A stretch of DNA of 64,000 nucleotides. Origin: Candidatus Levyibacteriota bacterium (GTDB taxonomy: Bacteria > Patescibacteriota > Microgenomatia > Levybacterales > UBA12049). Position numbers and translations under genes: made by a program. The stretch covers positions 46,312 through 110,311 of the forward strand of contig JACPLF010000006.1 of assembly GCA_016186645.1 (NCBI GenBank). The letters are read 5' to 3'. How positions within the stretch are numbered: position 1 is the first letter of the stretch; every line of letters starts with the position of its first letter. Of this stretch, positions 11,416 through 49,349 are shown piece by piece. The notes beneath the pieces are model-generated. The model saw only the letters and a program-made list of their open reading frames with translations. It was not told the origin of the DNA and did no database searches.

Positions 11416-12597
11416 ATGGTCAAATTAATTAAGTCTACTTTTTATAATGAATATAATACGAAAGAAAAATTGTGTGAATTTATTAAAAATGCTAAGCAGC
11501 TTAGTTTTGGGACAGAGTGCGAGAAGTTTGAACAAAATTTTGCTAAGTGGCAGAAAAGAAAGCATTGTATATTTTTGAATAGCGGAAGTTCCGCCAACTT
11601 AGCTATAGTTCAAGCGCTTCTGAATGAAGGTAGCATCAAAAAAGGGGATAATGTCGGGTTTTCAGCTCTCACCTGGTCCACAAATGTGATGCCAATAATT
11701 CAATTGGGATTGAATGCGATACCCATAGATGTCGAGTTAAACACTTTAAATGTTTCCAGCAGAATGCTTAGAGAAGTTATTGAAAAACATTCTTTGAAGA
11801 TGCTATTTATTACTAATCTTCTTGGATTTTGCGACGACATAGATGAAATAAGAAAAATTTGCGATGAAAAGAAAATAATTTTTATAGAGGATAACTGTGA
11901 ATCGTTAGGTACAGTTTACAAAGGAAAATTATTGGGCAATTATGGGATAGCTTCTACATTTTCCTTTTATGTCGGGCACCACATGTCTACGATTGAGGGC
12001 GGAGCAGTTTGTACTGATGATGATAAGCTTGCAACCATGCTTCGCTTGGTTAGGGCGCATGGGTGGGATCGTAATTTAAGCCAAGAACAGCAATTAAAAA
12101 TTAGAAACAAGTTTAAAGTTAACTCCACATTTTACTCAAGGTATACGTTCTACAATTTGGGTTATAATCTACGGCCAACAGAAATAAATGGACTTATCGG
12201 TAATTTACAAATTAAGTACCTTACAGAAATTATAGAGATAAGAAGCAAAAATTTTTTTGATTTATCGTTGCCTATTTATAAGCAGGAAAATAAGTATTTT
12301 ACGATTAAATATAAACATATCGATTTCCTTTCTAGCTTCGCTATTCCTGTAATATGCAAGAGTCAAAAAATAAGAGACGAATTGGTTGAAAAATGCAAAG
12401 ATAAGATTGAGATCAGGCCAATTGTAGGTGGAGATATGACAAGACAGCCTTTCTTCATGAAGTACATGAAGAAATATGCAGATTCATTTAATGACTCAAA
12501 TGCTAAGTTAGTGCATGATCAGGGGTTATATTTCGGCAACAATCCTGAGCTAACATCTGAAGAAAAGAAAATAATTTTAGACGTATTTACTAAGTAG
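11416..12597 (+). CDS. DegT/DnrJ/EryC1-family enzyme with His replacing the PLP lysine: putative PMP-dependent nucleotide-sugar 3-dehydratase (ColD/E1-like)
   Basis: SFYVGHHMSTIEGG in place of the canonical SF..K..GEGG; 393 aa; no C-terminal Cys cluster. Confidence 0.65.
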   Translation: MVKLIKSTFYNEYNTKEKLCEFIKNAKQLSFGTECEKFEQNFAKWQKRKHCIFLNSGSSANLAIVQALLNEGSIKKGDNVGFSALTWSTNVMPIIQLGLNAIPIDVELNTLNVSSRMLREVIEKHSLKMLFITNLLGFCDDIDEIRKICDEKKIIFIEDNCESLGTVYKGKLLGNYGIASTFSFYVGHHMSTIEGGAVCTDDDKLATMLRLVRAHGWDRNLSQEQQLKIRNKFKVNSTFYSRYTFYNLGYNLRPTEINGLIGNLQIKYLTEIIEIRSKNFFDLSLPIYKQENKYFTIKYKHIDFLSSFAIPVICKSQKIRDELVEKCKDKIEIRPIVGGDMTRQPFFMKYMKKYADSFNDSNAKLVHDQGLYFGNNPELTSEEKKIILDVFTK

Positions 12598-21681: not shown

Positions 21682-22764
21682 ATGAAATTTATTGCACAAA
21701 TGGAGCCATGGATTGGTAAAGAAGAGAAAGAAGCAGTTGATAGCGTTCTTGCATCAGGATGGATAACAGAAGCCTCTAAAACTCGTGAATTTGAAAGCCG
21801 TATCGCATCATTTGTAAAGAGCAAGTATGCAAGTGTTCTTTCCAATGGTACAGTTACTTTATTTGCCGGCTTAAAGGTTTTAGGAGTAGGACCGGGAGAC
21901 GAAGTAATTGTTCCGGATTTCACAATGGTTGCTAGTCCAAATACAGTTGTGATGGTTGGAGCAAAACCTGTATTTGTTGATATAAAAAAAGAAAATCTAT
22001 GTCTTGATCTTACAGAAGTTGAGAAGAAAATTACTAAAAAGACAAAAGCAATTATGCCGGTTGCTATCAACGGACGAGCTCCGGACATGGATAGCCTTAT
22101 GAAATTGGCTAAAAAGTATAAGCTTTTTGTTCTGGAAGATGCTGCGCAGGCTTTTGGAAGTTATTATAAAGGAAAACACTTGGGAACAATTGGAGACATA
22201 GGAAGTTTTTCTTTTAGTACTCCAAAAGTAATAACAACCGGTCAAGGTGGTGCTTTAGTTACGGACAATAAAGAATTTAGCGATAAAATTATAAGGATTA
22301 AAGATTTTGGAAGAATTGACAGGAATACCCAGAACCATGATGAGATAGGATACAACTTCAAATTTACGGACATTCAGGCGGCACTAGGTCTTGCTCAAAT
22401 GGGTAAATTAGAGTGGAGACTGAAAAGAAAAAAAGAAATGTACAAGCTTTATAAAGACTGTTTGAAGGAAGTATCTCAAGTAAAATTTATTAAAACAGAT
22501 CTAGAGCAAACTTCTCCCTGGTTTATAGATATTATGGTTGAGGATCCAATTAAACTATCTAAATATCTTAAAACTAAAAATATAGGGACAAGAGTTTTTT
22601 ATCCTGCGATTCACACTACAAAACCTTATAAGGGTGCAGAAAAATTTCCCAACTCTTTATGGGCATCAACTCATGGCCTTTGGCTTCCGTCATCAACTTT
22701 TCTTACAGAGTCTGATATAATCTTAATTTGCAGCGCCGTAAAAGAGTTTTATGAAAAAAACTGA
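21682..22764 (+). CDS. DegT/DnrJ/EryC1-family PLP-dependent sugar aminotransferase
   Basis: SFSTPKVITTGQGG with the canonical PLP lysine; 360 aa. Confidence 0.85.
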   Translation: MKFIAQMEPWIGKEEKEAVDSVLASGWITEASKTREFESRIASFVKSKYASVLSNGTVTLFAGLKVLGVGPGDEVIVPDFTMVASPNTVVMVGAKPVFVDIKKENLCLDLTEVEKKITKKTKAIMPVAINGRAPDMDSLMKLAKKYKLFVLEDAAQAFGSYYKGKHLGTIGDIGSFSFSTPKVITTGQGGALVTDNKEFSDKIIRIKDFGRIDRNTQNHDEIGYNFKFTDIQAALGLAQMGKLEWRLKRKKEMYKLYKDCLKEVSQVKFIKTDLEQTSPWFIDIMVEDPIKLSKYLKTKNIGTRVFYPAIHTTKPYKGAEKFPNSLWASTHGLWLPSSTFLTESDIILICSAVKEFYEKN

Positions 22765-40758: not shown

Positions 40759-41508
40759 ATGAATGACAAAAAATTAAATGTGGGGATTGTTGGTGTTGGA
40801 GAAGTTGGGTCATCAGTATTGGCTTTGGTTTCCAGAGTACACAATGTTTTTATGAGAGATATAGACAAAGATACAATCAAAAATCAAAAATTGGATGTTC
40901 TTCATGTTTGTATTCCATATGGCAAAGATTTTGAAAAAATAGTTATAGAAAATGTTAAACGGAATAATCCAGATTTGACAATAATTGAATCAACTATTTT
41001 GGTAAAAACAACAGAAAACATTTACAAATTGATAAAAAAACCCATTGTTCATTCTCCTGTAAGAGGTTTTCATACAACCATGGTTGGTGATCTTAAAAGA
41101 TTTGTTAAATTTGTTGGGTCTGTCGATAGGAAGTTTGCGCAGGATGCAAAAAAATATTACAAAACTTTGGGAGTTAATGCGCAGGTTGTAACTTCATCCC
41201 GCGAGACAGAAATGGGAAAACTTTTGGACACAACTTATTACGCTTTATGTATTGCATGGCATCAAGAGATGGATAGATTTTGCAAGAAATATAATATTAA
41301 CTTTGATGAAGCGGTAACTGCTTTTAACAAAACTTATAACGATGGATATAGAAATTCAAAGCCCAATGTAATTAGACCTGTTTTAACTCCAGGATTTATT
41401 GGAGGACATTGTCTTATGCCAAACATTGAGATTTTGAAGAAATCTTTCAAGTCAGATTTTCTCAGGGTTGTAGAAGAATCTAATGACAAAAAGAAAAAAA
41501 ATATCTAA
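40759..41508 (+). CDS. NAD(P)-binding Rossmann protein, short nucleotide-sugar dehydrogenase-like
   Basis: VGIVGVGEVGSS dinucleotide motif; PGFIGGHCLMPN resembles the UDP-glucose dehydrogenase catalytic PGxGFGGSCxPKD loop but with His for Ser; only 249 aa. Confidence 0.35.
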   Translation: MNDKKLNVGIVGVGEVGSSVLALVSRVHNVFMRDIDKDTIKNQKLDVLHVCIPYGKDFEKIVIENVKRNNPDLTIIESTILVKTTENIYKLIKKPIVHSPVRGFHTTMVGDLKRFVKFVGSVDRKFAQDAKKYYKTLGVNAQVVTSSRETEMGKLLDTTYYALCIAWHQEMDRFCKKYNINFDEAVTAFNKTYNDGYRNSKPNVIRPVLTPGFIGGHCLMPNIEILKKSFKSDFLRVVEESNDKKKKNI

Positions 41509-42113
41509 TGGACATTCTTTCTATAATTCAACATCTGCCTTTGGATATAGGACAAGCTGATAGAAAGCATAAAACAGCAGGAAAAAAAATTGCTCTATCT
41601 TTTATTCGGGAAGGAAAAGGAAAACTTGCTCTTGATATTGGATGTAGAGATGGTTATTGGTCAGAAGTTCTAAAGAAAAAAGGATACATAGTTAAATCTT
41701 TAGATATAGAGCCGCATTATAAAGGGGCATTAAAACACGATGTTGAAAAAGGACTGCCATTTGAGAATAAGACGTTTGATTTGATTTGGTGCACGGAAGT
41801 TTTGGAGCATCTCAAGAATCCTGAATTTTTAATTAAAGAAATAGGTAGAGTGATGAAAAAAAATGGAGTGGCAATTTTGACTACTCCAAATTCCAATTGG
41901 TGGGCATATTGGTTAGTAAAGCTTTGGGGTTGGACGCCAAAAAAACTTCAGAATAAAGATCACAAGCAATTTTTCGATGAAAATACTTTAAGAAATATTA
42001 CATCAGGATATGACATCTTTGGATATTTTCCCTATGCCCTTATCTTTTTAAAAATAAAATTTTTCCTAGGAATTCTATCTCCAACATTTATTTTGAGAAA
42101 GAATTTTAAATAA
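41508..42113 (+). CDS. Class I SAM-dependent methyltransferase
   Basis: LALDIGCRDGYW motif I; IWCTEVLEHL; KKNGVAILTTPN. Confidence 0.75.
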   Translation: MDILSIIQHLPLDIGQADRKHKTAGKKIALSFIREGKGKLALDIGCRDGYWSEVLKKKGYIVKSLDIEPHYKGALKHDVEKGLPFENKTFDLIWCTEVLEHLKNPEFLIKEIGRVMKKNGVAILTTPNSNWWAYWLVKLWGWTPKKLQNKDHKQFFDENTLRNITSGYDIFGYFPYALIFLKIKFFLGILSPTFILRKNFK

Positions 42114-44191
42114 TGTTCAATTTTTTATCAAATAAAAAAATCTTGGCTTTAATAGTGGGATGCATATATTTCATTTTATTGTTGGTTAGTATGCCTGACT
42201 ACAATATTTTTTGGGATGCCAGAAATCATTATTTTAAGGGCCAGGCATTTGTAAGTTTTTTTCTTTCTGGGAGAAAAGATTATGAAGGATTACCAATCAC
42301 CAAGGACTATGCTCGTTATCATCGGGATTATGTGAGCAAATATTCCCCTGATCCAAATATTGCAAGTAGGATTTCTAAAGACCCAAATTACAGAAGAAGT
42401 ATATATCAGGATGATGTTCACACTTTCGATTGGTTAATGAAATCCAATCAAATAGAGCACCCTGTTTTTAGTGATATAGCCTCAACTTTTTCCAATGTTT
42501 TATTTTATGAAAAACTTGGGTGGCTTAGGGACGACTATTCTTATCGTATTTATACTTTATCTTTGGCTTCGATTCTGGTTACTGTTATTTTTTATTGGCT
42601 TTTTAGTCTTTACGGTTTTATCGCTGCAATAATTGGTACACTTACTTTAGCAACAACTCCTCTTTTTTGGGCAGAAAGCCATTTTAATTTAAAGGATATT
42701 CCTCAAATGACTTTTTTTGCTTTAGCTATTTGGCAGTTTTATAACGGAATTGTTTCTAAATCAAAAAAGAAAATAATTTTTTCGGCAATTTTTGCAGCTT
42801 GTGCATTTTCAACAAAATTAAACATTGTTTTTCTGCCATTTATTTTAGCTCCATGGTTTATTATTTTTTATCTCAAAGAGAAAGAAGAAGAAAGGAGCAA
42901 ATATCATAGTTGGTGGTGGTTATTGTTGGCATATCCTGCAATTATGTTCGGAATTTTTATTGCAGTTTGGCCTCAGATGTGGCAAACACCAGTCAAGAGC
43001 TTTCTGGATGTTATAGAAATTTATAGACAGATAGGAGTTGCGCCTGATTACACTCCTACATTTAGAACAATATTTGGATTTAGTACTTACGCAGCTATTT
43101 GGATATTTCTTACAACTTATCCGTGGGTTGGGATTTTATCCATTTTTGGTATAGCAGCAGCAATACTTAATTTCAAAAAAGTGAAAAATTATCTTCCATT
43201 TTTATTGTTATTATGGCTTTTTGTTCCAATAGCAAGAGCTTCTCTTCCTTTCACTTCAATCTTTGGTGGAGTAAGGCATATCATGGAATACATTCCGGCG
43301 TTAGCTATGCTGGTTGGATATGGCACCTACAATCTCCTCAAGTTTTTTCCGAGCAGATTAAAAGGAATTATTGGATTAATTCTGATTTTGGGTTTTATAC
43401 CTCTTATTTTGACTTTGGTTAAGCTGCATCCTGCAGAAAATGTTTATTTCAATTCTTTGATTGGGGGTTTAAGCGGAGCTAAAAAAGCAAATATTACTGG
43501 TTGGGGATACAATGACGGAGGAATTTACAGAAAAGCAACAGTTTGGCTTAATGAACATGCAGAAAAAGGATCTCATGTGGCTGTCACTTTTAGCGAACCT
43601 GCGGATTTTTATATTCCAGAGTTAAGAGACGATTTATTAGCAGATAATTCTTTTAGCGGATATTTGCAAAAAGGAGAGTATATCATTGGGTTAACTCATG
43701 ATACAGGCTTGGATCATGTTTACAGAGTTAAATATTCTGAGGACTTCTTAGAGCCTCTATATTTATTTTCTATTGATAATGTGCCACTGTTAAAAATATG
43801 GAAAAATGAAAAGAAATATCTTAAAAAAGATTTTTCAAAGCTTGATTTTAAAAACCTAAGCATAATGCCGGAAAAATTAGAGGACATATTACAGTGGAAA
43901 TTAGATAGTGAAAAAATAATTATGGGAATTGAGGTTTCATTTGACGAAAACGGATCTTGTAAAAAATTAACAAACGCATATTTTCAAGTGTCTGAAGATG
44001 GAGAAAATTGGGAGATTCTGCCAGATATTTATCCTGGCGGAACTTTGAGCTTTCTAGGAGACCAGCCAAAAGATGGAAAATTAGTTGCGCCAATTGTAGG
44101 AGTGAAAATCCAGTATGTTTCTTTAGTTATTGACCCTCAAGATTCATGTATATTTAATCTGAAAAATAGCGAAATTGTTGTGCTGGAATAA
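42113..44191 (+). CDS. GT-C-type integral membrane glycosyltransferase-like protein (family A paralog) with discoidin-like C-terminal domain
   Basis: Shares SIFGGVRHIMEYIPA and the HFNLKD block with the 4139 protein; 692 aa. Confidence 0.7.
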   Translation: MFNFLSNKKILALIVGCIYFILLLVSMPDYNIFWDARNHYFKGQAFVSFFLSGRKDYEGLPITKDYARYHRDYVSKYSPDPNIASRISKDPNYRRSIYQDDVHTFDWLMKSNQIEHPVFSDIASTFSNVLFYEKLGWLRDDYSYRIYTLSLASILVTVIFYWLFSLYGFIAAIIGTLTLATTPLFWAESHFNLKDIPQMTFFALAIWQFYNGIVSKSKKKIIFSAIFAACAFSTKLNIVFLPFILAPWFIIFYLKEKEEERSKYHSWWWLLLAYPAIMFGIFIAVWPQMWQTPVKSFLDVIEIYRQIGVAPDYTPTFRTIFGFSTYAAIWIFLTTYPWVGILSIFGIAAAILNFKKVKNYLPFLLLLWLFVPIARASLPFTSIFGGVRHIMEYIPALAMLVGYGTYNLLKFFPSRLKGIIGLILILGFIPLILTLVKLHPAENVYFNSLIGGLSGAKKANITGWGYNDGGIYRKATVWLNEHAEKGSHVAVTFSEPADFYIPELRDDLLADNSFSGYLQKGEYIIGLTHDTGLDHVYRVKYSEDFLEPLYLFSIDNVPLLKIWKNEKKYLKKDFSKLDFKNLSIMPEKLEDILQWKLDSEKIIMGIEVSFDENGSCKKLTNAYFQVSEDGENWEILPDIYPGGTLSFLGDQPKDGKLVAPIVGVKIQYVSLVIDPQDSCIFNLKNSEIVVLE

Positions 44192-44215
44192 TATTTTGTT
44201 GTATACTTGTTAACT

Positions 44216-45427
44216 ATGGATGGTAAATTGCGGGTTACATATGCCAAGGCGGTATATGATGATAAGGAAATAGAAAGAGTTGTCAGCGTTTTGAAAGAGC
44301 ATAGGGAAGCAGTTGGTCGTGAGACTGATGAATTTGAGAAAAGAGTATCAAGGGCTTTTGGGAAAAAATATGGAATAATGGTTAACTCCGGTTCATCCGC
44401 AAATCTTTTAGCATTTGAGCTTATTAATTTAAAACCAGGATCCGAAGTTATCACTCCTCTTCTTACTTTTTCAACAACTGTAAGTCCAATAATACAGAAA
44501 GGGTTGGTTCCTGTATTTGCAGATGTTGAGGAGGGAAAATATATAATTGATGTATCTCAAATTGAAAAATTAATTACAAAAAAGACAAAAGCGATTATGA
44601 TACCTCTTTTGATAGGAAATATTCCAAATATGAAAAAAATTTCGGCAATTGCAAAAAAACATAAACTCTTTCTTATTGAAGATTCTTGTGATACGTTTCA
44701 AGGATTTTTTGATGGCAAACCAACAGGAACTTATTCGGACATTACTACTACAAGTTTCTATGGGTCTCATATCATTACTGCTGCGGCAGGGGGAGGGATG
44801 ATAATGGTAAATAGTGAAGGATATCGTGATAGGGCAAAGGTATTAAGGGGTTGGGGAAGACAGTCTTCTCTTTTTAATGAATCGGAAAGCATTGATAAAA
44901 GATTTAACTCCAAAACCAAAATAGAAGGAGCGCTATATGATGCAAAATTTATTTTTTCAGAAATAGGCTACAATTTTTTGCCTCTTGAAATAAGCGCTGC
45001 GTTTGGAAATGCGCAACTAGATAAACTTCCCGTTTTTAGAAAAAAGAGAGAGGAAAACTTCAGACATTTGCTTAATTTTTTCAAAAAGTATGAAAAGTTT
45101 TTCATCCTTCCAAAACAAGATGCTATGGTTGGTACTCAATGGCTTGCATTCCCATTAACAATAAAAAAGAATGCTCCCTTTACCCGTTTCGAAATTGTAA
45201 AGTTTCTTGAGGAGAATAACATTCAGACCCGTCCTATTTTAGCAGGTAATGTGCTTAAGCAACCCGGCTTTACAGAGATAAAGAACAGAATAATAAAAGG
45301 CGGATGCCCAGTAACGGAACTAATTATGAAAAATGGATTTGTGGTTGGTTGTCATCAGGGACTTGAAGATGTTCACCTTGAGCGGATTAAAGAATCAATA
45401 GCAGCTTTTATCAAAAGTCTTTCTTAA
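44216..45427 (+). CDS. DegT-family enzyme with His replacing the PLP lysine: putative nucleotide-sugar 3-dehydratase (ColD/E1-like), second copy
   Basis: SFYGSHIITAAAGGG. ATG at 44216 preferred over the upstream TTG at 44207 used by the track. Confidence 0.65.
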   Translation: MDGKLRVTYAKAVYDDKEIERVVSVLKEHREAVGRETDEFEKRVSRAFGKKYGIMVNSGSSANLLAFELINLKPGSEVITPLLTFSTTVSPIIQKGLVPVFADVEEGKYIIDVSQIEKLITKKTKAIMIPLLIGNIPNMKKISAIAKKHKLFLIEDSCDTFQGFFDGKPTGTYSDITTTSFYGSHIITAAAGGGMIMVNSEGYRDRAKVLRGWGRQSSLFNESESIDKRFNSKTKIEGALYDAKFIFSEIGYNFLPLEISAAFGNAQLDKLPVFRKKREENFRHLLNFFKKYEKFFILPKQDAMVGTQWLAFPLTIKKNAPFTRFEIVKFLEENNIQTRPILAGNVLKQPGFTEIKNRIIKGGCPVTELIMKNGFVVGCHQGLEDVHLERIKESIAAFIKSLS

Positions 45428-46356
45428 TCTTTATTTTTAAAAATACTTTTTACAATAAATTTAGGTCTTTGTTTTACCTCTTCAAATATTTTGCCAATGT
45501 ATTCTCCAAGAACACTTATTCCCAATAATTGGATTGCTCCGATAAATAACACTGCAATTAATACTGTTGTAGTTCCTTGAGGAGTGTTTGGCAAGACAAG
45601 CCTTAATATTATCTGTACTACTATCGCAACAAGGGCAATAAAGAAAACAATGAACGAGAGCATTGTCATAATTTGCAAAGGAACGTAGGAGAAAGAAAGT
45701 ATTCCCTTTGTTGCCCAATTAATATTTTTAAGAAGGCTATTGGTTGACCTGCCAAACATTCTTTCAGGCCTTGTGTAGGGTATTCCTGTTTGTCTAAATC
45801 CAACCCATGCCCTTAGTCCTCTTAGGAATCTGTCTCTTTCGGGAAAAGTTTTCAGGATTTGTACAACCTTGTTGTCTATTAAAGAGAAATCTCCGGCATC
45901 AAGAGGCATTTTTATGTAAGACAATTTGTGGAAGATTCTGTAGAAAAGCTTATAGGCAATGGCCATGTAAAGAGGCGCTTCTCTTTTTGTTCTTATTCCA
46001 TAAACAACATCATATCCCTGAATCCATTTCTCATAAAGTTTTTCTATTAATTCCGGAGGATCCTGTAAATCCCCATCCAGCAGCACTACTGCATCAGAGT
46101 TAGCAATTTCCATGCCGCTTGTGAATGCCATTTGTGAGCTGAAATTTCTCGAATGGTTTATCGCAATTACGTGTTTATCTTTTTTTACAAGATTTTCCAG
46201 GATTTGTTCTGTCTTGTCAGGACTCCCGTCATTTACAAAAATTATTTCATAATCAGTACCAATTTTTTCAAAAGTCTTTTTAAGCCTTTCATACATTATG
46301 GGAATTGCCTGTTCATCTTTGTAGCATGCGATAACTGCAGATAATTTTTTATTCAT
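45424..46356 (-). CDS. Polyprenyl-phosphate glycosyltransferase (GT2, GtrB-like) with C-terminal TM hairpin
   Basis: SAVIACYKDE...IIFVNDGSPD...DGDLQDPPE; C-terminal hydrophobic helices. Confidence 0.8.
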   Translation of the reverse strand: MNKKLSAVIACYKDEQAIPIMYERLKKTFEKIGTDYEIIFVNDGSPDKTEQILENLVKKDKHVIAINHSRNFSSQMAFTSGMEIANSDAVVLLDGDLQDPPELIEKLYEKWIQGYDVVYGIRTKREAPLYMAIAYKLFYRIFHKLSYIKMPLDAGDFSLIDNKVVQILKTFPERDRFLRGLRAWVGFRQTGIPYTRPERMFGRSTNSLLKNINWATKGILSFSYVPLQIMTMLSFIVFFIALVAIVVQIILRLVLPNTPQGTTTVLIAVLFIGAIQLLGISVLGEYIGKIFEEVKQRPKFIVKSIFKNKD

Positions 46357-46380: not shown

Positions 46381-46875
46381 CTATCTTCTAAGGTTTACAT
46401 ACCAAGGTTTGTCACTTTTTATCATATCATTAACAAGTCCTGGAATTTCTTCCAGAGTTTCAGGCCATCTTGAATCTATATTTTTAAATATTTTCATAAC
46501 TTCCCTATCTTCTTCTGCCCAATGGCAAAATCCATGGTCTGAATAATCTTTATCTCGTCCACCCCCAATTAACTTAACAGGAATACTTTCGTGATCTAAG
46601 TAATTCCTAATCGTTTCAAACGGACGGTATAAGAGGAAGGTTGTGATAGAGTAGATTATTGGTATTTTTCCTTGTAGAGCCAATCCAACTCCTATTCCTA
46701 CCATTGCTTGTTCTGCCGCCCCAACGTTTAATACTCTGTCAGGGTAAGAAGATCTCAGATCATCTAACATCTTATATCCTAGATCACCGGTAAGTATATA
46801 TATTTTCTTATTCGACTTCATTCGCTGAAAAAGTTCGTAAACGAACCATCCGCGCATTGAATTATGTCTTTTCAT
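46381..46875 (-). CDS. Transketolase-like pyrimidine-binding domain protein, C-terminal half of a split mini-transketolase
   Basis: GDLGYKML...FPDRVLNVGAAEQAMVGIGVGLALQGKIP resembles the transketolase Pyr domain; 164 aa; no transketolase C-terminal domain. Confidence 0.65.
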   Translation of the reverse strand: MKRHNSMRGWFVYELFQRMKSNKKIYILTGDLGYKMLDDLRSSYPDRVLNVGAAEQAMVGIGVGLALQGKIPIIYSITTFLLYRPFETIRNYLDHESIPVKLIGGGRDKDYSDHGFCHWAEEDREVMKIFKNIDSRWPETLEEIPGLVNDMIKSDKPWYVNLRR

Positions 46876-47501
46876 CTTAGTATCTCTAATGCTTTCTTAT
46901 ACTCATCATCAGTCATTGCATGATAATGAGCATCCAATCCTTTAAGAAAGGGTAATTGCTCAACTGTTGTTAATCTTATATTAATTTCAGGACAGAATGC
47001 CTTCAGCCTTTTGGTTAATTGAATGGGATTGATAGCGTCATACGCTCCATAGCCATTTAGATTTATATACACTTTTAGATTATCTACTTTTAGATCAGTT
47101 TTTATTCTTAATGTTTCCCATACGCTTCCTTCCGCACATTCACCATCACTTATCATGCAATAAACATTTTTCGATCTGTCGGCGATTGCCATTCCCAAAG
47201 CAACAGGCAATCCTTGCCCAAGACTTCCAGTTGTACACCAAATACCATTTTTTTCGTCCTTACTCGGATGAATCCCATATCTCCTAAGCAGGTATTCAGG
47301 GTCTCTTCTTTCATGTTTTTCTAGAATGCAATAAAAAGCAAGTCCTGCGTGTCCTTCTGATAATATAAATTTTTCGTCTTCTCTTTTTAAATCGTATATC
47401 TCCTCGATAATATCTACAGCTGATAAACAGCTTCCAAGATGATATTTTTTGTATTTATAGCTAATCTCAATTATTCGTCTTTTTAAATCTTTATTTTTCA
47501 T
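46872..47501 (-). CDS. Transketolase-like thiamine-diphosphate-binding N-terminal subunit (split mini-transketolase)
   Basis: SEGHAGLAFYCIL, GSLGQGLPVALGMA and ISDGECAEGSVWE motifs; 209 aa. Confidence 0.7.
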   Translation of the reverse strand: MKNKDLKRRIIEISYKYKKYHLGSCLSAVDIIEEIYDLKREDEKFILSEGHAGLAFYCILEKHERRDPEYLLRRYGIHPSKDEKNGIWCTTGSLGQGLPVALGMAIADRSKNVYCMISDGECAEGSVWETLRIKTDLKVDNLKVYINLNGYGAYDAINPIQLTKRLKAFCPEINIRLTTVEQLPFLKGLDAHYHAMTDDEYKKALEILR

Positions 47502-47503
47502 TT

Positions 47504-48451
47504 TTAAAGATACTTTTTAAACCATTGATAGGTTTCTTTAAGTCCCTCTTCCAAGCTATATTTCGGTTCCCAATCGAGATATTTTTTGGTTTTTGATATA
47601 TCTGCTACCCAATGAGAAGTATCCCACAAACGTTTCGGAAATACACCTTTTTCGATTTTTACTTTTTTCCCTGTTACTTTGAAAAGTTTTTCCACCACCT
47701 CATCATTTGTAAATTCAAGACCGGTTCCCATATTTAGAATTTGTCCTGAAAGCTCTTTTCCTTTAGATATAGTTTTAATATAAATATCTACGACATCTTT
47801 TATATAAACAAAATCTCTTCTCTGCGTTCCTGATGTAAGTTTAATAGGGTGCCTTTGTATAGCTGCCTTAATGATTATAGGGATAAAACGTTTCTCTTCT
47901 TCGTGCGGTCCGAAAACAGAAAAAGGTCTTAGCGTAACAATTGGTTTTTGATGCTCTTTAGAAAATACTTGGCAGAGAAGTGTTGCTGATGCTTTTGTAG
48001 CGGCATAAAAGCTAATAGGTTCCAAAATATCATCTTCTTTCATTGGGTTTTCTTTGATTCCATATTCGGAAGAAGATCCGGTGTTTATAAAGATTTTATA
48101 ATTTATATCCTTTGAAGATATAAGTAAATTCATGGTACCCTTTATATTTACTTCAATCATTTCAAGCGCAGCTGTATGATCTCTATACGCGCTATATGTT
48201 GCCAAATGAATAATTATAGAAGGATTAATTTTCTCAACTATAGTTTTTAATTCATCCTTGTCCAAAAGATCAACTTCGTGAAGACGGATTTTTGGAAGAA
48301 CATTTTTTAGGCGTTTGAGGTCCGTTGAATTTCGTATAAGTAAATTAATATTTTTATAACCCAAATCCAATAGTTTGTTAACTAAATTAGCGCCAATAAA
48401 TCCAGCACCTCCTGTTATTAAAACAGGATCGCGTGTTATAATGGGAGACAT
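47504..48451 (-). CDS. NAD-dependent sugar epimerase/dehydratase (SDR)
   Basis: VLITGGAGFIGANL and YAATK. Start chosen at the internal Met (MSPIITRD); the track start at 48481 adds 10 residues and overlaps the divergent gene. Confidence 0.75.
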   Translation of the reverse strand: MSPIITRDPVLITGGAGFIGANLVNKLLDLGYKNINLLIRNSTDLKRLKNVLPKIRLHEVDLLDKDELKTIVEKINPSIIIHLATYSAYRDHTAALEMIEVNIKGTMNLLISSKDINYKIFINTGSSSEYGIKENPMKEDDILEPISFYAATKASATLLCQVFSKEHQKPIVTLRPFSVFGPHEEEKRFIPIIIKAAIQRHPIKLTSGTQRRDFVYIKDVVDIYIKTISKGKELSGQILNMGTGLEFTNDEVVEKLFKVTGKKVKIEKGVFPKRLWDTSHWVADISKTKKYLDWEPKYSLEEGLKETYQWFKKYL

Positions 48452-49349
48452 GATTGATATTATATGTGCTTTGTGTGGCAAAAAGCAACAAGTTAAGACT
48501 CTTTATCCTGCCACTTTTAAGGAAAATGCTATCCCTAAAAACATCTATTCCGCCAGACGTTTTCCGGATAAGGTACATTATAAAATTAATAAATGCTCAA
48601 ACTGTAGTTTAGTTTTTTCTTCGCCTATTTTGCCCTTGGAGAAATTATTTCCCCTTTATAGGGAAAGCTTGTGTAATTATCAAGATCAAATACCATATCT
48701 AATTAAAACTTATTTCAAAATTGTCAATGAAATTAAGAAAGATCTCCCCAAAAATCCAAAAGTTTTGGAGGTTGGTTGTGGTAACGGTTTCTTTCTGAAG
48801 GCTTTAAAAGATTTAAATTTCACGCAGAATGTTTTTGGAGTGGAGCCCAGCTACAAAATGGTTTCTAAAGCAGACTCGTCTATAAGGAACAGAATTAAAA
48901 TAGATGTTTTCAATTCCAATCTATTTCCTAAGAATAGTTTTGATCTTGCTTTGTGTTTCCATACCTTGGATCACATGATTGACCCGAACGATTTTATTAA
49001 AGGAGCAAATTCAATGCTGAAGAAAAACGGATATGTAATTGTAGTTGTCCACGACACGCAGGGACTGTCAGTGAAATTATTTGGAGAAAGCTCAGCAATT
49101 TTTGACGTAGAACACATATATTTATTTAACAAAAAAACTTTACGAGAAATATTTATAAAAAATCAATTTAAAGCGATAAAAGTTTTTAACGTGGTCAACA
49201 AATACCCTTTGAATTATTGGGTTAAAATGAGTGGCTTTCCTCTTGTTATTAGAAAAATTGTCAATTATACTATTAGACTAATTGGCTTGAGCAAAATACC
49301 GGTACCAATTCCTGCTGGAAATATTGGTATTATTGCAAGAAAAACCTGA
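48450..49349 (+). CDS. Class I SAM-dependent methyltransferase with N-terminal Cys4 zinc-ribbon
   Basis: CALCG...CSNC pair followed by VLEVGCGNGFF motif I. Start ambiguous (48441 or 48450). Confidence 0.7.
   Translation: MIDIICALCGKKQQVKTLYPATFKENAIPKNIYSARRFPDKVHYKINKCSNCSLVFSSPILPLEKLFPLYRESLCNYQDQIPYLIKTYFKIVNEIKKDLPKNPKVLEVGCGNGFFLKALKDLNFTQNVFGVEPSYKMVSKADSSIRNRIKIDVFNSNLFPKNSFDLALCFHTLDHMIDPNDFIKGANSMLKKNGYVIVVVHDTQGLSVKLFGESSAIFDVEHIYLFNKKTLREIFIKNQFKAIKVFNVVNKYPLNYWVKMSGFPLVIRKIVNYTIRLIGLSKIPVPIPAGNIGIIARKT

Follow-up and report, generated by a model that had tools for sequence, protein, structure and literature searches.

Two adjacent genes on the minus strand of a 64,000-nucleotide stretch of Candidatus Levyibacteriota DNA (contig JACPLF010000006.1, positions 46,312 to 110,311; hereafter the window, whose own numbering is used for all coordinates) probably encode a minimal two-chain, putatively alpha2beta2, thiamine diphosphate (ThDP) enzyme of the transketolase (TK) lineage, with the diphosphate-binding (PP) and pyrimidine-binding (Pyr) domains on separate chains. 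TKN (mini-transketolase subunit A; 46872..47501, minus strand, 209 aa) is a compact PP domain, and PYR (mini-transketolase subunit B; 46381..46875, minus strand, 164 aa) is a Pyr domain without the transketolase C-terminal (TKC) domain. Judged by domain content, no smaller form of the TK lineage than PP plus Pyr alone turned up in this survey. The pair shares an operon with a short-chain dehydrogenase/reductase (SDR) and a polyprenyl-phosphate glycosyltransferase (GT) of family GT2. Our preferred reading, to which we give a probability of roughly 0.6, is a step like that of YerE and YerF: the enzyme would add a two-carbon (C2) unit to a nucleoside diphosphate (NDP)-4-keto-deoxyhexose, and reduction, methylation and transfer to polyprenyl phosphate would follow. 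This proposal starts from the domain identity of the pair, its intact active site, the operon structure, conserved synteny and gene fusions in relatives. The pair appears to be a minimal variant among ThDP-dependent sugar C-C ligases, unexpectedly widespread in candidate phyla radiation (CPR) bacteria and viruses; its chemistry is a prediction.

Domain content and active site

An earlier note, made from the letters of the window alone, had described the two open reading frames (ORFs) as carrying transketolase motifs, and the profile searches that it proposed agree. TKN matches Pfam Transketolase_N (E 3e-10, covering profile positions 55-181 of 334), PYR matches Transket_pyr (E 2.4e-11, covering profile positions 17-168 of 174), and the DXP_synthase_N match of the pair is marginal. 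The TKC domain, noted as missing, is indeed found by Pfam searches in neither ORF nor in the neighbouring ORFs, which rules out its supply in trans by a small neighbouring ORF. Also gone is the PP-Pyr linker, roughly 70 aa long in transketolase. The TKN and PYR genes overlap by 4 bp, 2 nt lie between the stop codon of the SDR gene and the TKN start, and 24 nt separate the PYR stop from the start of the GT2 gene; on the strength of this overlap and these spacings SDR-TKN-PYR-GT2 is regarded as one operon. The pair therein lies, as reported, between an SDR and a GtrB-like lipid-sugar synthase, the reported range of 46381-48451 taking in the SDR gene (47504-48451) as well.

The nearest solved relatives of TKN and PYR are the two chains of the Carboxydothermus split transketolase (E 1e-14 and 4e-16, the latter for PYR against 6yaj). 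The best NCBIfam model is transketolase NF004559, at 86 and 41 bits against a cut-off of 488, so that the equivalog score is not reached. Aligned with E. coli TktA (hhalign, probability 98%), TKN places H21, H51, H78, D119 and N149 opposite H26, H66, H100, D155 and N185. Asp155 and Asn185 of TktA are ThDP-Mg ligands, and their counterparts Asp119 and Asn149 are present in a ThDP-Mg motif (S118-D119-G120 ... N149) where D119 is 100% and N149 99% conserved; across all mapped TK catalytic residues of TKN, conservation is 97-100% (n = 157 family members, as for all conservation figures here). In PYR, the cofactor-activating glutamate is Glu55 (in "GAAEQ"), which aligns with that of split TK and with E. 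coli E411, and His118 corresponds to E. coli H473; both are 100% conserved. Three arginines of PYR are also kept: Arg8 (98%), Arg107 (97%) and Arg164 (87%). Their distances from conserved anchors (23 and 7 residues) would equate Arg8 and Arg164 with R358 and R520 of E. coli TK, two of its residues for binding sugar phosphate; hhalign pairs R164 with R520, though weakly. A third such residue, H461, aligns with Gly106, just before the invariant Arg107. An invariant H192-Y193, outside every alignment obtained, may correspond to E. coli H261.

The AlphaFold2 (AF2) models have pLDDT values of 94.8 (TKN) and 86.7 (PYR), and Foldseek pairs both with TK-family structures at probability 1.0. The best match of TKN is 6yak, the N chain of split TK (TMq 0.82); split and human TK fill ranks 1-10, and 1-deoxyxylulose-5-phosphate synthase (DXS) and the alpha chain of 2-oxoacid dehydrogenase E1 come out much weaker than TK. 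PYR fits the Pyr domains of TK, DXS and E1-beta alike, at a TMq of about 0.8. The pair is probably a stripped-down transketolase-type enzyme, predicted to be active. Its fold and gene order are of the TK type and not of the decarboxylase-superfamily type: the single-chain Pyr-TH3-PP order of YerE is absent, the sole signal being a 35-residue TPP_enzyme_C match at the ThDP motif (E 1e-4). A minimal ThDP enzyme like phosphonopyruvate or sulfopyruvate decarboxylase is likewise ruled out by the TK-type matches and fold and by the marginal TPP_enzyme_C signal.

Family size and distribution

The best 120 homologues of each ORF match it in size (193-239 aa for all of those of TKN), and family-wide lengths stay near 209 and 164 aa, with thousands of homologues of these lengths. 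An exhaustive search of 1.8 billion representative proteins gives about 128 clusters (50% identity) at E<1e-30, nearly all of 195-235 aa. PYR searches yield 75 loci in species-representative genomes, mostly CPR/Microgenomates and also Omnitrophota, Planctomycetota, Elusimicrobia and others, and 203 viral-contig matches in IMG/VR, giant-virus metagenome-assembled genomes (MAGs) included. The pair is far commoner than the earlier note knew. No close homologues were found in cultured phages or plasmids. Pfam matches to DXP_synthase_N are common among family members; NCBI names in the family are generic, and proteins identical to the window pair, in a Candidatus Levybacteria MAG, are annotated by NCBI as hypothetical. 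PHROGs lists "unknown function" for the Pyr chain and has no match for the PP chain, and literature searches found no description of this minimal family or of the gene combination. The mini-TKs split into two clades, one comprising the window and gene-order classes A and B, the other classes C and D, as defined below.

Gene neighbourhoods and fusions

To describe gene contexts, ORFs were called in 162 loci and clustered, the recurrent clusters were annotated, and occurrences were counted by hidden Markov model (HMM) search with the cluster profiles; adjacency is scored over 157 loci, and other tallies use 75 cellular and 80 viral loci. TKN adjoins PYR in about 153/157 loci, and an SDR lies no more than five genes from the pair in 132/157. 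Four arrangements recur. Class A, which is cellular and includes the window, reads (MT) SDR (MT) TKN PYR GT2, MT being an optional methyltransferase; this SDR-(MT)-TKN-PYR-GT2 order is found in about 45 cellular genomes of several phyla. Class B, from small phages with terminase, reads GmhA-like, HddA-like, HddC-like, SDR, TKN, PYR. Marine viral loci make up class C: GTs, TKN, PYR, an RmlD-like SDR, a true RfbH (469 bits, above the cut-off of 423) and a 4,6-dehydratase-like SDR. In class D, also viral, TKN and PYR accompany a KdsC/GmhB-like phosphatase, a PfkB-like kinase and nucleotidyltransferases, with RfbH and SDRs a few genes off. The earlier note had proposed looking for co-occurrence with sugar genes in other genomes, and it is there: a GT2 gene is present in 65/75 cellular and 20/80 viral loci, and a methyltransferase gene in 60/75 and 14/80. 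The latter often stands between SDR and TKN, and methyltransferase::TKN fusions exist (P0155, P0216). Any heptose-type marker occurs in 1/75 cellular loci (within 10 kb) and in 31/80 viral loci.

Relatives with full-length split TKs occur in cultured organisms. A plasmid of Methylovirgula sp. HY1 (NZ_CP073765) carries rfbF, rfbG, an NAD(P)-oxidoreductase (SDR), rfbH, TK-N and TK-C, then a convergent GT2 and GtrA; full-length homologues in the window are 28% (SDR), 35% (RfbH-like protein, E 4e-83), 29% (TKN) and 32% (GT2) identical. A tblastn search of the window with the Methylovirgula GtrA gave no match, which is a weak test. In Paenibacillus cellulosilyticus (NZ_CP054609) the order is rfbF, rfbG, methyltransferase, a 635-aa protein, TK-C, O-methyltransferase, GT and GT2/GtrA; that 635-aa protein combines an extended SDR and a TK PP domain as a fusion. 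Such SDR::TKN fusions are found in about 14 clusters (lineages), distant ones included, where the order is NTP-transferase, 4,6-dehydratase-like SDR, (DegT), SDR::TKN, TK-C and GT2; the GT2 of a fusion-type locus is 36% identical to that of the window over its full length. In one case (P0408) a homologue of the TK-partner SDR is itself fused to a ferredoxin-NADP-reductase-type domain (PF00175), an arrangement reminiscent of E3, the reductase partner of RfbH.

A subset of cellular loci (L013, L015, L017, L019, L029 and L040) has a classical SDR (adh_short, about 250 aa), always paired with GT2, in place of the extended SDR; the redox partner of the module is therefore exchangeable. In small phages, GmhA-like (E 2.6e-26), HddA-like (E 5e-47) and HddC-like (E 2e-31) genes lie directly upstream of SDR-TKN-PYR, beside packaging genes (L004, L005, L088-L089, L093, L097-L098, L102, L136-L137; e.g. 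L102:6268-6753 and L087:1310-2245). By these similarities the gene content of the terminase-bearing phages amounts to a near-complete GDP-heptose pathway, and their hosts are probably CPR bacteria.

Partner genes and proposed pathway

The SDR (47504..48451, minus strand; start extendable to a TTG at 48481) is of the extended type and matches Pfam Epimerase and GDP_Man_Dehyd (E 2e-50). It has "SSE" where dehydratases have "TDE", which rules out a 4,6-dehydratase, and after beta-2 it reads "LLIRN", with Arg instead of the NAD-binding Asp (read by eye); by eye, too, it resembles NADPH-dependent GDP-fucose synthase or RmlD. Because TDE is lacking and Arg follows beta-2, it is given a reductase role and not one in forming the keto-sugar. 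It is probably an NADPH-type ketoreductase acting as YerF does; YerF is the reductase of the branch after the YerE step. An identity as HldD was rejected, since heptose_epim scores 124 bits against a cut-off of 275, lower than LegB, RmlB and GalE.

The last gene of the operon (45424..46356, minus strand) encodes a GT2 polyprenyl-phosphate glycosyltransferase of the GtrB/ArnC/PgfS type (Glycos_transf_2, E 4e-27). Its full-length scores are 247 bits for PgfS and 170 bits for ArnC, both under the equivalog cut-offs, and two hydrophobic C-terminal segments (transmembrane helices) are visible.

Convergent with the operon, at 44207..45427 on the plus strand, lies an RfbH/ColD-like NDP-4-keto-6-deoxyhexose 3-dehydrase (RfbH model NF011936, 359 bits against a cut-off of 423). 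His replaces the catalytic pyridoxal phosphate (PLP)-binding Lys (SFYGSHIIT) and the CxC..C Fe-S motif is absent, and for these two reasons we class it as ColD-like rather than E1-like. Its product would keep the C4 ketone, and it is the presumed source of a 4-keto-3,6-dideoxy acceptor. Beside it, at 42113..44191, is a GT-C (PMT_2/ArnT-like) membrane glycosyltransferase (plus strand; PMT_2, E 7e-7), likely the user of the polyprenyl-phosphate sugar; its membership of the module is suggested by adjacency, and its cluster (c28) recurs in some related loci. On the other side, divergent from the operon at 48375..49349 (plus strand), is an S-adenosylmethionine (SAM)-dependent methyltransferase with an N-terminal Cys-rich stretch (Methyltransf_23, E 2e-24).

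Under the proposed pathway the enzyme would be a carboligase acting on a nucleotide-activated keto-sugar, with the C2 unit loaded on ThDP. With a ketose phosphate or hydroxypyruvate as donor the unit would be a ketol; acetyl, donated by pyruvate, is less likely. The unit would be added to the carbonyl at C4 of an NDP-4-keto-6-deoxy hexose or of its 4-keto-3,6-dideoxy counterpart, which the adjacent ColD/RfbH-like 3-dehydrase would supply. The co-translated SDR would then reduce the new branch ketone with NADPH, as YerF does after YerE, the methyltransferase may decorate the sugar, and the GtrB-type GT2 would move the branched sugar onto polyprenyl phosphate, from which a GT-C enzyme would use it on the outside of the membrane.

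If this is true, natural TKs can do without the TKC domain and the linker, and a soluble, compact TK of two chains, with NDP-keto-sugars among its acceptors, would offer a new biocatalytic route to tertiary alcohols and rare sugars. In CPR and Omnitrophota bacteria the pair would be the marker of an unknown surface-glycan sugar. Among uncultured phages and giant-virus MAGs it ranks with the commoner gene pairs for sugar modification, which suggests that viruses drive glycan remodelling. We regard it as an even bet that this undescribed family of minimal two-chain TKs, spread over CPR bacteria, other phyla, phages and giant-virus MAGs, is the first widespread TK-type builder of branched or higher-carbon sugars on NDP-keto-sugars for surface glycosylation by lipid carrier, and that viruses remodel host or virion glycans with it. 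Because cultured strains of Methylovirgula and Paenibacillus have homologous clusters, the question is within direct reach of experiment.

Comparison with known systems

ThDP-dependent sugar branching is known from a handful of enzymes (YerE-like and E1-like), and for transketolases it is only a proposal. The split TK of Carboxydothermus hydrogenoformans is active as alpha2beta2, and its missing PP-Pyr linker is thought to give bulkier acceptors room (PMC7661550). Like the window pair it carries PP and Pyr on separate chains with no linker, and its chains (6yak/6yaj) are the best sequence and structure match; unlike the window pair it retains TKC on its C chain (about 300-340 aa against 164 aa), has an N chain of about 280-310 aa against 209 aa, and is a pentose-phosphate-pathway enzyme encoded outside any glycan operon, with 23-28% identity to the window ORFs.

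A counterpart in pathway logic is YerE of Yersinia pseudotuberculosis (yersiniose A), a ThDP enzyme whose acceptor is a CDP-3,6-dideoxy-4-keto-hexose, the product of a 4,6-dehydratase and RfbH; C2 is added at its C4 ketone (PMC12247030). The TK pair has neighbours that follow this YerE/YerF gene logic in viral clade 5 and in Methylovirgula, and partly so in the window. YerE itself, however, belongs to the decarboxylase (acetolactate-synthase-like) superfamily and is a single chain with FAD and pyruvate as donor, whereas the window enzyme is of the TK lineage and has two chains. Split TKs have been proposed for hydroxyacetyl branching in miharamycin and amipurimycin, along with 13 transketolases of Streptomyces biosynthetic gene clusters, and are unproven in vitro (PMC12247030). 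They resemble the window pair in being TK-type, in lying beside an oxidoreductase and in the proposed addition of a ketol to a keto-sugar, but they are full-length and belong to actinomycete antibiotic clusters, and the window pair is minimal and sits in a surface-glycan operon ending in a polyprenyl-phosphate GT2. The alpha and beta chains of the alpha-keto acid dehydrogenase-2 E1 (KbDH-alpha/beta, of the aldgamycin and avilamycin types) put a C2 branch on deoxy-keto sugars (PMC12247030). These too are a heteromeric PP chain and Pyr chain of the TK-like ThDP superfamily; they differ in having E1 sequences, a TKC-like domain on the beta chain and pyruvate as donor, whereas the window PP chain gives weak E1 signals.

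The uncharacterised Methylovirgula and Paenibacillus clusters share the SDR, TK-N, TK-Pyr, a GtrB-type GT2 and RfbH with the window. Their TKs differ in retaining TKC and a full-size PP domain, the Paenibacillus SDR is fused to TK-N, and identities to the window proteins are 28-35%. The GtrA/GtrB/GtrX and ArnC/ArnT systems match the window in that a GT2 makes the polyprenyl-phosphate sugar and a GT-C uses it on the outer face of the membrane; they load ordinary or aminated sugars and include no ThDP enzyme.

Weighing the readings

Keto-sugar branching is the best-supported reading, favoured by the rfbF/rfbG/rfbH synteny, the recurrent SDR::TK fusions and the adjoining 3-dehydrase. The viral loci of class C, where the mini-TK lies between a true RfbH, a 4,6-dehydratase-like SDR and an RmlD-like reductase, support it further, and ThDP-made branch ketones are usually reduced or methylated afterwards, a chemistry for which split TKs have been proposed (PMC12247030). 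Several points weigh against it. We infer the acceptor, the donor, the order of steps and the stereochemistry, and all of the support is comparative; the split TKs of the informative cultured clusters are only 29-31% identical to the mini-TK. A 4,6-dehydratase or 3-dehydrase gene lies within 10 kb in 5/75 cellular loci, so that most have none. Heptose-type genes (GmhA-, HddA- and HddC-like, or a PfkB kinase with a HAD phosphatase) adjoin the pair in 31/80 viral loci, and the apparent retention of the TK phosphate-binding arginines (Arg8, Arg164) would also fit ordinary sugar-phosphate substrates. Finally, no in vitro work has ever demonstrated that a TK-type enzyme adds to the ketone of a sugar (PMC12247030). 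The idea of the earlier note, C2 transfer onto a keto-sugar that is later loaded onto polyprenyl phosphate, thus survives in outline, with the SDR seeming to act as a reductase after the TK step and with about 40% of viral loci lying beside heptose genes.

A first alternative keeps the pathway and changes the donor: a DXS- or E1-like enzyme that decarboxylates pyruvate would transfer acetyl (hydroxyethyl), and the branch would be acetyl or 1-hydroxyethyl. Such an enzyme would be a genuine functional counterpart of YerE or of the alpha-KADH2 enzymes. The Pyr subunit is as near to DXS and E1-beta as to TK (the shared TMq noted above, and sequence matches to DXS at 6e-6), many members of the family match DXP_synthase_N, and the characterised sugar-branching ThDP enzymes all use 2-oxoacids (PMC12247030). 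The PP subunit, however, is clearly nearest to split and human TK in both sequence and Foldseek rank, with E1 signals that are weak (TIGR03182 at 2.8e-4, PRK09212 at 1.6e-3) and no E1_dh Pfam match at E<=0.01. The DXS model TIGR00204 scores 18 and 28 bits against a cut-off of 466, and its full-length PP-Pyr-TKC architecture is absent; the conserved residues, being common to TK and DXS, do not discriminate between the two. We consider a pyruvate donor unlikely. An E1 or DXS fragment with no link to sugar metabolism, against which the earlier note had guarded, is not what was found, the pair lying always among nucleotide-sugar genes.

The main rival on substrate holds that the pair is a minimal transketolase on sugar phosphates, making sedoheptulose 7-phosphate (S7P) or another ketose phosphate for an NDP-heptose or higher-sugar pathway, with the SDR modifying the NDP-heptose and the GT2 loading it. 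S7P is a classical TK product, the TK catalytic residues are conserved, apparently with Arg358 and Arg520 among them, and the phage mini-TKs that follow GmhA-, HddA- and HddC-like genes share a clade with the window pair; other viral loci have a PfkB kinase, a KdsC/GmhB-like phosphatase and a nucleotidyltransferase by TKN-PYR and no adjacent SDR. These PfkB/HAD loci, however, also hold RfbH and dehydratases a few genes away, and the heptose genes seen in viral loci are all but missing from cellular ones. The 64-kb window has no heptose-pathway markers and no nucleotidyltransferase, sugar kinase, isomerase or phosphatase gene, its content being confined to transferases and genes that modify NDP-sugars. 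Neither the SDR::TK-N fusions nor the rfbF-rfbG-rfbH synteny makes sense for an enzyme opening a sugar-phosphate pathway, and Planctomycetota and similar phyla are expected to own a housekeeping TK. On balance S7P synthesis seems improbable. The phage activation genes may only supply an NDP-sugar that SDR and TK modify later, and the phage subgroup may have a different function.

A long shot is that the C2 unit goes to another carbonyl, either an exocyclic aldehyde (C6 of an NDP-hexodialdose, giving an octose or nonose) or a keto-sugar on polyprenyl phosphate, as with DprE1/DprE2 on decaprenyl-phosphate-ribose. Transketolases prefer aldehyde acceptors and linker-less split TKs accept bulky ones (PMC7661550), most cellular loci are without a nearby keto-sugar-forming enzyme, a GT2-paired classical SDR takes the place of the extended one in several of them, and phage loci could lengthen GDP-heptose in this way. 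Synteny with 4,6-dehydratase and 3-dehydrase genes points instead to a C4 ketone, no candidate C6 oxidase was identified, and none of the searches annotated a membrane segment in the TK subunits, which are small proteins.

An alditol-phosphate/CDP-ketose reductase route (AbpA/AbpB-like), prompted by IspD/TagD-like transferases in viral loci, was set aside because it leaves the GT2, which requires a glycosyl donor, unexplained; literature searches found no transketolase in pneumococcal cps loci. That the ORFs are decayed remnants of a housekeeping TK, as the earlier note allowed, or a chance domain match without function is practically negligible: both are much shorter than canonical TK domains and bear the NCBI label hypothetical, but the family is large and constant in length, its catalytic residues are intact and conserved, the AF2 folds are complete and confident, and the operon architecture is kept in >150 loci.

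The glycan island and further loci

The whole 64-kb window is a glycan island, with about nine SDRs, three DegT-like genes and many GT2, GT4, GT-C and methyltransferase genes. Other products encoded there are an MBOAT protein, a polysaccharide deacetylase and two membrane proteins of very large size, one of 958 aa that includes an F5/8 type C domain and one of 1133 aa. Besides the 3-dehydrase gene described above, the DegT genes are at 11416-12597 and 21682-22764 (both plus strand); one of these also has His in place of the catalytic Lys and is of the dehydrase type, whereas the other, which retains Lys, is a true aminotransferase. Given the second His-type gene, the island probably makes more than one deoxy-sugar. 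At 40759-41508 (plus strand) a 249-aa nucleotide-sugar dehydrogenase has the N-terminal and central UDPG_MGDP_dh domains only, its C-terminal domain missing, and a methyltransferase gene directly after it; this could be a split or degenerate gene.

In some gene calls viral TKN is fused to HNH/NUMOD4 homing-endonuclease domains (P0138, P0148, P0149), and in several loci an extra ORF, for a small unknown protein or an FkbM methyltransferase, separates TKN from PYR (L006, L059, L078, L087, L148, L149, L154, L160, L161). These fusions and inserted ORFs suggest that mobile elements have invaded the gene pair. On giant-virus MAG contigs from IMG/VR (L128, L130, L145, L148) the pair lies beside His-type 3-dehydrases lacking Fe-S cysteines, TDE-type 4,6-dehydratases and GT34-like glycosyltransferases.

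B12-binding radical-SAM proteins recur beside split or mini TK genes (cluster c17: L030, L036, L037, L049, L055). A plasmid of Azospirillum argentinense (NZ_CP007798, 43135-53242; L164) carries a kinase, an NAD(P)-oxidoreductase, a B12-binding radical-SAM protein, TK-N, TK-C, a cobalamin protein and a methyltransferase. Such neighbourhoods suggest a further, different TK-containing pathway for a sugar or another metabolite.

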